The notes: generated from the letters alone by a model not told the origin. 39,508 bases of DNA from Candidatus Dojkabacteria bacterium (GCA_046753765.1 JBHHUN010000008.1:1-39508), one strand, 5' to 3'. Numbered from the stretch's first letter, positions 156-3,936 are shown. Numbers and translations: made by a program.

Positions 156-271
156 AATATACTTGGTATATCACTATTGTACCATCTCGTATGTACAGAT
201 ATGAAGATATTTCAGTCAAATTGCTTGTGTCTAGGCAAGATATAGTGGAGAGAAGAAGCTATCCTACTCTG

Positions 272-343
272 CTGGTCGGACAGGACTCGAACCTGTAATC
301 TCCCGGTTAACAGCCGGGTGCAATACCATTATGCTACCGACCA
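272..343 (-). tRNA. tRNA-Asn(GTT)
   Basis: Cloverleaf TGGTCGG...CCGACCA-G, anticodon arm CCCGG-CTGTTAA-CCGGG, T-loop TTCGAGT; no encoded CCA. Confidence 0.95.
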
Positions 344-374: not shown

Positions 375-430
375 AGCCGGGTTCAATGCCGTTATGGCTA
401 TTTATTCCAACGTAGTCGGAACCGACCGAC
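375..430 (-). repeat. Degenerate copy of the 5' half of tRNA-Asn carrying a palindromic insertion (405-421)
   Basis: agccgggttcaatgccgttatg..accgacc matches tRNA agccgggtgcaataccattatg..accgacc; interrupted by ttccaac-gta-gtcggaa. Confidence 0.8.
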
Positions 431-454: not shown

Positions 455-480
455 AAAATAAAAAATCCCCTTTCGGGGAT
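455..480 (-). terminator. Intrinsic terminator (3:4 hairpin of the attenuator)
   Basis: Minus strand reads ATCCCC-GAAA-GGGGAT followed by TTTTTATTTT. Confidence 0.85.
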
Positions 481-511
481 CATTCTGACTTCAACAACCA
501 AAATAATCCCG

Positions 512-559
512 CTAGGAGGTATTATTCTGATTATTGTTAGTTACTTTTATTGTCTTCAT
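512..559 (-). CDS. Asn-rich leader peptide MKTIKVTNNNQNNTS
   Basis: ATG at 559, TAG at 514-512; 5 of 6 consecutive codons are AAC/AAT. Confidence 0.75.
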   Translation of the reverse strand: MKTIKVTNNNQNNTS

Positions 560-2964: not shown

Positions 2965-3022
2965 TGAGTCGGGCGAGACTCGAACTCGCAACCAATCCCG
3001 ACTAGGGTCGGGACTGCTCTAC
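2965..3022 (-). repeat. tRNA-Lys-derived copy with the anticodon arm replaced by a palindrome
   Basis: 2965-2996 is identical to 3284-3315; then cccgac-tagg-gtcggg replaces ggcttaaaaggcc, followed by actgctctac. Confidence 0.9.
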
Positions 3023-3262
3023 TAATTCACTCACCTTCTTCCTGCTCTTCCATCTTTTGATCTGAAGCTCTCGCTTTTTGGCTTCGGTTTGCGAAACAAT
3101 TTCCTCTGAATACACTAACTCCCAATCTCCTGGTTGTTTCCGTGTGTACTTACTCTTATGAAGTCCTTTCTGATGCTCTGACAACCGCTTCTGAAGGTCA
3201 GTAGTGCTTCCGATATAGTACTTGTCTATGACAGCATTGTAGAGGATATATACGTGGAAGAT
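3002..3262 (-). CDS. Small GIY-YIG nuclease (UPF0213-like); start codon uncertain
   Basis: HVYILY..YYIGSTTDLQKRLSEH..SKYT..W.LVYSE..EAKKRELQIKRWKSR; the expected start position reads ATC and the in-frame TTG at 3310 lies inside the tRNA. Confidence 0.88.
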   Translation of the reverse strand: MFHVYILYNAVIDKYYIGSTTDLQKRLSEHQKGLHKSKYTRKQPGDWELVYSEEIVSQTEAKKRELQIKRWKSRKKVSELVEQSRP

Positions 3263-3283
3263 CTTAATGAGGTAAAAAATAAG

Positions 3284-3355
3284 TGAGTCGGGCGAGACTC
3301 GAACTCGCAACCAATGGCTTAAAAGGCCACTGCTCTACCATTGAGCTACCGACCC
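3284..3355 (-). tRNA. tRNA-Lys(TTT)
   Basis: GGGTCGG...CCGACTC-A, anticodon arm GTGGC-CTTTTAA-GCCAT, TTCGAGT; no encoded CCA. Confidence 0.95.
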
Positions 3356-3578
3356 AATGACTCATGATTTTTTACTCCATTATTCTTTAAAGATCTCTAA
3401 CTCGCTTCCAATCCCGACTAAGGTCGGGACTGCCTATCCACTAACCCTACCGACCCAATGACTCATTTATCTTTTACTCCATTATTCTTTAAAGATCTCT
3501 AACTCGCTTCCAATCCCGACTAAGGTCGGGACTGCTCTACCATTGAGGCTATCTATTCCGACTTGTCGGAACCGACCC
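3346..3578 (-). repeat. ~102-bp tandem direct repeat containing two pseudo-tRNA-Lys modules and three palindromes
   Basis: 3346-3433 is nearly identical to 3447-3535; palindromes at 3412-3429, 3514-3531 and 3556-3571. Confidence 0.9.
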
Positions 3579-3579
3579 A

Positions 3580-3936
3580 CTAGTAAATCGCATTCTTAAT
3601 GTGCTTTAGTTTATCAATCGAACCTGAACTGGCTACCACTCCAACAAAATCAATTCGCCAGTCAGCATCCTGCATCTCATTCCTCATCATCCAAACCCTG
3701 CACGTCTTTATTAGTGTCTGTCGTTTCTTGCTCGTGATCGTCTGCTCAAGCCTGATATAGTTCTCATTCTTAAGACTTTTTACCTCAACAAACACCAATT
3801 CACTTTGTTCTCTTGCAATTATATCAATTTCTCCACCCCTGATGGTAAAGTTGCGCTCAATTATTTGATATCCTGCCGAGCGCAGATAGCTTGCAACCTT
3901 TCCTTCAATCTGTTTTCCCCTCTTCCTTTTATTCAT
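3580..3936 (-). CDS. yraN: YraN/UPF0102 family endonuclease
   Basis: ERNF..GGEIDIIA..LVFVEVK..WRIDFV; typical position after rnhB. Confidence 0.88.
   Translation of the reverse strand: MNKRKRGKQIEGKVASYLRSAGYQIIERNFTIRGGEIDIIAREQSELVFVEVKSLKNENYIRLEQTITSKKRQTLIKTCRVWMMRNEMQDADWRIDFVGVVASSGSIDKLKHIKNAIY

Follow-up and report, generated by a model that had tools for sequence, protein, structure and literature searches.

A palindromic insert shared by 5' fragments of tRNA-Lys and tRNA-Asn genes, and its likeness to the hairpins of a tRNA-associated GIY-YIG nuclease family

Introduction

In the genome of a Candidatus Dojkabacteria bacterium, the genes for tRNA-Lys and tRNA-Asn are each preceded by partial copies of their own 5' halves, and one such fragment at each locus is interrupted at the same point by a short palindromic segment. 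This raises the question of how so similar a segment came to lie at the same position in copies of two different tRNAs. An earlier note on this DNA had proposed an element of about 21 nt, with sequence- or structure-specific targeting, acting in trans 3 kb from a nuclease gene. Here, the two loci are compared with those of relatives, with the nuclease family to which the neighbouring gene belongs and with the tRNA-associated hairpins that accompany this family. The window, i.e., the whole stretch of DNA analysed (39,508 nt), is contig C8 of a genome of 1.26 Mb in 69 contigs, with 44% G+C.

Organization of the tRNA-Lys and tRNA-Asn loci

Both loci are read on the minus strand (Table 1). In this orientation rplS, rnhB and yraN are followed by unit A, unit B, tRNA-Lys(UUU), the GIY-YIG gene and a 3' copy of tRNA-Lys, and, 2.9 kb from this locus, a 31-nt spacer separates the 5' pseudo-copy Asn' (427-375) from tRNA-Asn (343-271). 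In unit A the anticodon arm is replaced by a second hairpin, and the tRNA-Lys 3' end and trailer are repeated in inverted form as the tail; unit B lacks the insert at A9-G10 and has a diverged D arm. Hairpins of the form TCCCGAC-N4-GTCGGGA are found on both sides of the nuclease gene, two of them upstream (3514-3531 and 3412-3429) and one at the stop codon (2996-3013). None of the fragments is scored as a tRNA: ARAGORN and Rfam call only 271-343 and 3283-3355, and Rfam at E up to 1 returned nothing besides these two intact tRNAs. The ORFs between or beside the fragments are the GIY-YIG gene, a MazG-like gene, an ABC transporter gene (read from sequence) and yraN. Duplication of an integrase att site at a tRNA was considered and rejected, as the repeats are 5' halves and there is no integrase among the neighbouring ORFs.

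Table 1. Features of the two tRNA loci in the window.
Feature	Position	Strand	Remarks
Intact tRNA-Asn(GUU)	271..343	-	ARAGORN and Rfam; orthologues 82-88% identity in relatives
Asn', 5' pseudo-copy of tRNA-Asn, positions 1 to about 33	375..427	-	A9-G10 swapped for 24-nt segment
Imperfect palindrome TTCCAAC-GTA-GTCGGAA	405..421	.	Minus strand TTCCGAC-TAC-GTTGGAA; one G-T mismatch
3' pseudo-copy of tRNA-Lys	2965..3021	-	D-loop part, hairpin 2996-3013, T arm, acceptor 3' strand
Small single-domain GIY-YIG nuclease gene	3002..3268	-	PF01541 E 2.5e-17
Intact tRNA-Lys(UUU)	3283..3355	-	ARAGORN and Rfam
Unit B, second 5' pseudo-copy of tRNA-Lys	3357..3467	-	Hairpin 3412-3429 at anticodon site
Unit A, outermost 5' pseudo-copy of tRNA-Lys	3468..3579	-	23-nt replacement at A9-G10
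Hairpin TCCCGAC-N4-GTCGGGA	3514..3531	.	In place of unit A anticodon arm
Perfect palindrome TTCCGAC-TT-GTCGGAA (Lys copy)	3556..3571	.	7-bp arms, 2-nt loop
yraN (UPF0102) gene	3580..3936	-	Conserved upstream neighbour; marks ancestral tRNA-Lys site

Some further details of these tRNA genes deserve mention. The tRNA-Lys gene is flanked by imperfect inverted repeats (3245-3290 and 3357-3397 of the window; also found in locus L002), and the leader directly upstream of it, which ends in AGATCT, repeats the tRNA 3' end and trailer in inverted orientation; the same inverted relation of leader to tRNA 3' end and trailer, read by eye, holds for 18 of 19 bases in genome G021. Since units A and B end in inverted copies of the tRNA trailer, they were considered as possible relics of opposite-strand cassettes. 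Contig C17 (10003-10075) has another tRNA-Asn(GUU) gene, with a D arm, variable region and T arm identical to those of the tRNA-Lys(UUU) of this genome; it is unlike the tRNA-Asn of the window, which is of the type common to relatives.

Homologous inserts at A9-G10

Alignment and direct reading of the minus strand show that unit A and Asn' match their parent tRNAs through T8 and again from C11. In place of A9-G10, each has a segment of 23-24 nt with the form TCCGAC-loop-GTYGGAATARATAGC, namely TCCGAC-AA-GTCGGAATAGATAGC in the Lys copy (23 nt) and TCCGAC-TAC-GTTGGAATAAATAGC in the Asn copy (24 nt). On the plus strand, the Asn copy reads GCTA TTTA TTCCAACGTAGTCGGAA CCGACC (397-427) and the Lys copy GCTA TCTA TTCCGACTTGTCGGAA CCGACCC (3548-3578), in agreement with the letters that the earlier note had quoted; its view that the inserts are homologous and occupy the same tRNA position is borne out by the alignment, with A9-G10 replaced in both. 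An alternative description is an insert of 20-21 nt after position 7, together with one extra C after TAGC in both copies, and this common C argues that the whole segment arose once. Over 32 nt the two versions are about 84% alike. The junction is the same in both; there is a TAG-A-TAG repeat, with no clean duplication.

The parent tRNAs had also been said to share their 5' sequence, and this sharing turns out to be exclusive: GTCGGTAGC stands at the 5' end, after the first one or two bases, in just two of the 42 tRNAs of the genome, tRNA-Lys and tRNA-Asn. When the Asn region was used as a query, the Lys insert was the only other match in the whole genome (86% over 35 nt, E 9.3e-4). The resemblance is thus not a matter of chance, given this match and the presence of GTCGGTAGC in these two tRNAs alone. 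As for an assembly artefact, units A and B have about twice the neighbouring depth, as expected of a two-copy repeat, and are collapsed into short contigs, so that repeat assembly is delicate here; both inserts are nonetheless bridged, with 0 gaps and no joints, by public contigs of four runs of one sample. These runs are probably the source of the assembly itself and hence exclude a gross artefact without being independent support. Taken together, chance or misassembly is a most improbable origin for the likeness of the two inserts. No insert-free form was seen among the contigs examined from these four runs.

The palindromes differ in how well they fold. For the TTCCGAC hairpin of unit A, the DNA fold is weak (-4.8 kcal/mol, z -1.1 to -1.5), and 16-31 of 200 shuffled sequences did as well; the DNA fold of the Asn copy prefers an alternative pairing of GTCGG with CCGAC. 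Both results count against the reading favoured below, in which the segment is a hairpin of the nuclease family. The TCCCGAC-N4-GTCGGGA hairpins are far more stable, both in unit A (-8.9 kcal/mol, z -4.3) and in the 3' copy (2996-3013; -9.7 kcal/mol, z -5.1), with 0 of 200 shuffles as good in either case.

These folds also bear on a possible role at the RNA level, whereby the insert would pair with the leftover 5' acceptor strand or fold on itself, sparing the real tRNA competition, or would mark a processing site. Such a role would suit the location of both fragments, just upstream of a live tRNA and on the same strand, the Asn copy moreover following an attenuator terminator; it would also suit the Asn palindrome, which is fully paired only if G-U pairs are permitted, and the pairing of leftover GTCGG with the CCGAC of the insert in the fold of the Asn copy. 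However, the fold energies are no better than those of shuffled sequences, unit B does without an insert, and the arm sequence, besides its pairing, is conserved across phyla, which points to recognition by a protein or as DNA. An RNA-level role therefore seems improbable as the explanation of the inserts, and could in any case coexist with the reading that we favour.

The fragments lie at the ancestral tRNA sites

Comparison with relatives indicates where the two tRNA genes originally stood. Unit A begins 1 nt after the yraN stop codon, exactly as the intact tRNA-Lys does in one relative (G003), and in two others (G011 and G007) the intact tRNA-Lys starts within 5-6 nt of this stop codon. Asn' follows the attenuator terminator by about 30 nt, at the place of the intact tRNA-Asn of relatives; the distance from the leader-peptide stop to tRNA-Asn is 171 nt here versus 60-81 nt in four relatives, the excess corresponding roughly to Asn' plus the spacer. 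Both hairpin-bearing fragments are therefore at the original gene sites, and the working tRNAs are downstream of them.

The same comparison accounts for the proximity of the two loci. In G001, G003 and G011, tRNA-Asn and tRNA-Lys are 4-7 kb apart, and their closeness in the window is inherited synteny, not the spread of an element. With the two genes being ancestral neighbours, the suggestion that the element had acted in trans over 3 kb is not upheld; an earlier cassette at tRNA-Asn, or the transfer of a patch by recombination, explains the two-locus pattern equally well. Between tRNA-Asn and the contig end, a stretch of 270 nt, neither a nuclease gene nor a 3' relic was found, which counts against our favoured reading, and tblastn at E up to 10 detected no decayed nuclease gene near tRNA-Asn.

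The leader upstream of tRNA-Asn (455-559, minus strand) is of some interest in itself. It contains an Asn-rich open frame, MKTIKVTNNNQNNTS, at 559-512, followed by three mutually complementary segments that allow alternative hairpins and then by a terminator at 481-464. A comparable Asn-rich frame is present in seven of nine relatives (L116, L118-L122, L124) and, in four relatives read by eye, the sequences of the leader segments differ with complementarity kept. From these sequence features, it looks like a leader-peptide attenuator governing the tRNA gene.

The nuclease gene

Over residues 19-91 of a 102-aa frame, the product of the gene following tRNA-Lys matches the GIY-YIG domain (PF01541, E 2.5e-17), and its homologous core of 88 aa has 36 invariant columns among four aligned relatives. 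Its stop codon lies inside the loop of the next hairpin (2996-3013). The frame has no ATG, GTG or TTG start after tRNA-Lys, the only canonical in-frame start being located inside the tRNA gene, and relatives read ATG where the window gene reads ATC. This lack of a canonical start codon makes present-day activity of the nuclease uncertain and counts against our favoured reading. The nearest solved structures are those of the UPF0213 proteins 1ywl and 1zg2. The NCBIfam model TIGR01453 gave 27.5 bits for a cut-off of 56.05, with residues 6-40 alone matched; a free-standing homing endonuclease of the Seg or group I intron type was rejected on this sub-cut-off score and on the presence of a nuclease core without a DNA-binding extension.

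The assembly has no other small stand-alone GIY-YIG gene. The only further close relative (41% identity) is the C-terminal GIY-YIG part of a 265-aa frame at 5488-6285 of contig C30 (L111 934-1731), whose N-terminal part was read by eye as GNAT-like; no tRNA was called on this contig.

A hairpin family accompanies relatives of the nuclease at tRNA genes

Relatives were collected with an alignment of the window protein and three relatives, yielding 80 loci from species genomes of Flavobacterium, Pedobacter, Acidobacteriaceae, Saccharibacteria, Dojkabacteria, Shapirobacteria and others. ARAGORN called a tRNA in 66 of these loci, with 86 calls on the strand of the gene and 0 on the other, and in 63 of the 80 a tRNA is directly beside the gene (at most 200 nt upstream, overlapping, or at most 100 nt downstream). 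The hairpin pattern of the family, T[CT]CCG[AG][CT]-loop-complement, was matched perfectly 162 times, in 69 of the 80 loci, and not once in reversed sequence; a perfect hairpin lies within -45 to +110 of the stop codon for 79 of 106 ORFs. The genes occur in tandem arrays of up to 5-7, each ORF being followed by a 3' pseudo-tRNA in which the family hairpin stands for the anticodon arm, and the ORF stop codon is often found in the hairpin loop or is formed by U8-A9-G10 of the pseudo-tRNA. Within the class to which this genome belongs, relatives of the nuclease gene are present in 79 of 221 genomes, with up to 11 matches per genome, and 24 of 35 ORF matches, from the 30 loci fetched within the class, adjoin a tRNA.

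The position of the hairpins relative to the tRNA is also informative. A local tRNA served to position 129 of the 162 perfect hairpins; the remaining 33 are in loci without a called tRNA. Seventy-six of the 162 clearly replace the anticodon arm, 19 belong to arrays of 5' units and about 12 stand between the T stem and the acceptor strand, each of these last with a short tail starting with C. None of the 129 placed hairpins has its left flank in the acceptor strand, which counts against our favoured reading. Displaced 5' halves of tRNA-Glu cassettes also have insertions near the start of the D stem: in L099 this is a family hairpin with TCCCGAT, and in L093 and L152 other palindromes. Across the family, arm sequence follows the cassette lineage and not the local tRNA, TCCCGAC being associated with 13 different acceptor 7-mers; on these grounds, a family-wide dependence of the hairpin arms on the local acceptor stem was rejected.

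Two side observations were made on these loci. The hairpin pseudo-tRNAs are miscalled by ARAGORN as tRNA-Glu, Ala, Cys or Phe (L031, L039, L063, L069, L089), because the 7-bp stem with its 3-nt loop can pass for a stem of 5 bp closing an anticodon loop of 7 nt. In addition, a second palindrome family, CCTGCCT-loop-AGGCAGG, is found in T loops and D loops of pseudo-tRNAs (L002, L003, L005, L110), and in some relatives adjoins a TCCCGAC or TTCCGAC hairpin.

Distribution of the palindrome

The earlier note had called for a genome-wide palindrome search, with random scatter as the outcome that would speak against it. Within this genome, TTCCGAC-N2-4-GTCGGAA occurs once and TCCCGAC-N4-GTCGGGA three times, and all four of these perfect 7-bp matches are at the tRNA-Lys locus; random scatter was not seen. 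With the looser pattern YCCGAC..GTCGGR there are eight matches, five of them within tRNA fragments. In total, the 1.26 Mb hold one perfect and one imperfect copy of the TTCCGAC type, and five of the TCCCGAC type; four of these five lie in tRNA fragments, and the fifth, on the small contig C66, has a 6-nt loop and is in no recognisable tRNA context. The fourth tRNA-associated TCCCGAC copy is a TCCCGAC-N3-GTCGGGA hairpin in the T loop of a tRNA-Phe 3' relic on contig C2.

Two other repeats were noted during this search. At 17639-17849 of contig C2, tRNA-Phe is followed by a partial T-arm copy, the hairpin TCCCGAC-TTT-GTCGGGA, a further stretch of about 57 nt and 20 nt repeated from the tRNA 3' end; judged by its sequence, this arrangement appears to be a relic of such a cassette that lacks the gene. 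The other repeat, about 175 nt long, with hairpins of its own and ending in the last 20 nt of tRNA-Glu, occurs at C13 25757-25931 and C11 1810-1983, on different contigs; one of the copies directly follows tRNA-Glu.

Outside this genome, the bare motif carries little information. TTCCGAC-N1-5-GTYGGAA was found in 11 of 221 genomes of the class versus nine for the reversed control and is thus not enriched, the matches being mostly unrelated and two of them lying in rRNA genes. These two, recognised by eye, are a 16-nt palindrome, TTCCGACAAGTCGGAA, at 1501-1516 of both L018 and L019 (G061, G032), and may be a helix tip or an insertion. None of the 220 other genomes of the class has the segment in the same tRNA context and site, and a metagenome scan with the acceptor strand plus palindrome string, in a collection that may lack records close to this genome, gave three matches, all in unrelated, mostly coding, surroundings and none in tRNA context.

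Two of the ten foreign TTCCGAC matches are nevertheless informative, and both come from the same order. In G022, TTCCGAC/GTCGGAA arms replace the anticodon arm of a pseudo-tRNA right after a GIY-YIG gene, and in G020 these arms are found next to tRNA-Asn, within the T loop of a 3' relic. The link between the palindrome and the nuclease family, which had been supposed from the window, is hence also seen in other genomes.

Origin of the inserts

The notion of an independently mobile element of about 21 nt fares less well. In this account, which we regard as quite unlikely, a palindromic element would insert site-specifically at GGTCGG^TAGC and be mobilised in trans by the nuclease 3 kb away. It would agree with the identical junction in two different tRNA copies, with the single small stand-alone GIY-YIG gene of the assembly (the other close match being a GNAT fusion) and with the second-site hairpins with short tails of other cassettes. 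Yet there are just two copies in 1.26 Mb, the site is occupied in tRNA context neither in the 220 other genomes of the class nor in the metagenome scan, no contig is without the insert, and the copies have diverged at about 5 of 32 positions, which makes the events old. Moreover, GIY-YIG enzymes are hydrolytic nucleases with no known strand-transfer activity. A miniature mobile element of the MITE or REP type was rejected on copy number and on the lack of a dispersed repeat family in the genome.

The reading that we favour combines displaced original 5' halves, the cassette hairpin motif and a site set by the shared GTCGG, and as a whole we would give it an even chance. For the order of events, we infer that a cassette targeting tRNA genes, with a tiny GIY-YIG nuclease gene at its core, brought in replacement tRNA copies downstream, and that the palindrome-bearing Lys and Asn pieces are the original tRNA 5' halves, which stayed at their ancestral positions. 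The segment of 23-24 nt at A9-G10 would be a copy of the cassette family hairpin and, by analogy with the Ssn nucleases discussed in the last section, this hairpin would be the ssDNA recognition site of the nuclease. Hairpins would be installed at junctions between the arms of disabled tRNA copies, usually at the anticodon arm, sometimes at the junction of T stem and acceptor and here at the start of the D stem. That two tRNAs received it at the same site could be ascribed to GGTCGGTAGC, which only these two have: its GTCGG is also the 3' arm of the hairpin, which may have allowed homology-guided insertion or the copying of a patch between loci.

The hairpin arms are at the same time the acceptor-stem sequence of exactly these two tRNAs, which also fits an origin by local fold-back or template switching. 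Repair or replication would have re-copied the tRNA's own GTCGG in inverted form (GTCGG-TT-CCGAC-AA-GTCGG), gene conversion by way of the common 5' sequence would have carried the product between the loci, and the likeness to cassette hairpins would be coincidental. We hold this to be unlikely, if deserving of some weight. Besides the identity of CCGAC/GTCGG with the acceptor stems of the 2 of 42 tRNAs concerned, it draws on the competing GTCGG/CCGAC pairing in the DNA fold, on the extra C and tail common to both copies, which indicate one origin and copying instead of two insertions, and on a possible MAFFT alignment in which the sequence following the palindrome is a degenerate repeat of the tRNA 5' end; once CCGAC is given, agreement of the outer two bases with the family pattern has, by our estimate, a chance probability of about 1 in 8. 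On the other hand, fold-back of GTCGGTA predicts TACCGAC and TTCCGAC is observed, the tail AATAGA is left unexplained, cassette hairpins with identical TTCCGAC/GTCGGAA arms occur with unrelated acceptor stems in G022 and G020, and the locus already has three family hairpins and the nuclease gene.

A bolder form of the favoured reading can also be envisaged, in which the hairpin is a portable module recognised by an ssDNA nuclease, and repair triggered by the nuclease and guided by microhomology writes it into tRNA copies where cloverleaf arms meet, one gene thereby remodelling, in trans, all tRNAs that match the arm. We view this as doubtful; the matching tRNAs would here be the only two of the genome that bear GTCGG.

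Significance

The family to which the window gene belongs is a large branch of tiny GIY-YIG nuclease genes located at tRNA genes in Patescibacteria, Bacteroidota and Acidobacteriota and flanked by disabled tRNA copies in which the hairpin is conserved. The new detail is the position of a hairpin at the start of the D stem. Its presence in exactly two tRNAs, whose acceptor strand is the same as the hairpin arm, gives a concrete handle on how hairpins might be installed, and the Lys and Asn inserts form a ready natural pair of candidate substrates for the nuclease. If the hairpin-writing proposal is true, the system would be selfish and self-rescuing, and would reshape the tRNA loci of different bacterial phyla. 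In practical terms, hairpin pseudo-tRNAs are an annotation pitfall, as illustrated by the ARAGORN miscalls in several genomes.

Comparison with known systems

Several known systems share some of these traits. Mobile endonuclease ORFs of fungal mitochondria provide one likeness, as the selfish insert supplies a replacement gene end and the host gene stays intact, and the GC-cluster palindromes of the same organelles provide another, being small, GC-rich and peppered through non-essential sequence. These systems, likened here by description, differ in their organellar setting and in their nuclease families and palindromes.

Seg proteins are larger than the window nuclease and have a DNA-binding domain, where here the nuclease core of about 88 aa stands alone, and we know of no hairpin motif or hairpin-bearing pseudo-tRNA described for Seg. 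What the SegB-type homing endonucleases of phage tRNA clusters have in common with the present locus is a GIY-YIG gene among tRNA genes, with relatives that differ in gene presence or absence, and neighbouring DNA whose duplication or amplification it promotes (PMC13096335).

No description of tRNA-embedded cassettes of this kind was found in a literature search. The enzymes of IS200/IS605 and REP/RAYT elements are HUH/Y1 transposases that form covalent intermediates, and the enzyme considered here has a GIY-YIG fold. Unlike these elements, the genome also has no dispersed repeat family. The resemblance lies in a small gene bracketed by short palindromes that are recognised as ssDNA hairpins, and in gene-less palindrome copies that can be acted on in trans (PMC11893778).

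The Ssn nucleases were characterised only in 2025 (Chenal et al., 2025, PMC11893778). As described there, they are single-domain GIY-YIG proteins of about 94 aa (CDD family cd10448) that bind and cut ssDNA alone, beside hairpin repeats with ATTCCCGC/GCGGGAAT arms; the layout is often NTS-gene-NTS, and the sequence of the arms matters while that of the loop is free (PMC11893778). Some differences are evident. The published degenerate SRM pattern, HGTCWYN(0-2)YYVSBRHN(0-5)WNVSBRGN(0-2)RNCYNB (PMC11893778), does not match the cassette hairpins: it gave four matches in the genome versus 1-7 in five shuffles, none at hairpins, and in related loci it matched in one of 80, again not at hairpins. There are 5-6 hairpins per genome here, unlike the hundreds of Ssn repeats, and they lie within tRNA-gene fragments, with 0 occurrences of tRNA in the main text of that publication (PMC11893778). 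The similarities are nonetheless clear: the window nuclease, of about 90 aa, is likewise small and consists of a GIY-YIG domain alone, its gene stands between short hairpin repeats with the arm core TTCC(C)G...C(G)GGAA, and arm sequence matters besides structure, with a free loop sequence (PMC11893778). By sequence features alone, the Ssn ssDNA nucleases with their NTS/SRM hairpins would thus be the closest published system to the cassettes described here.
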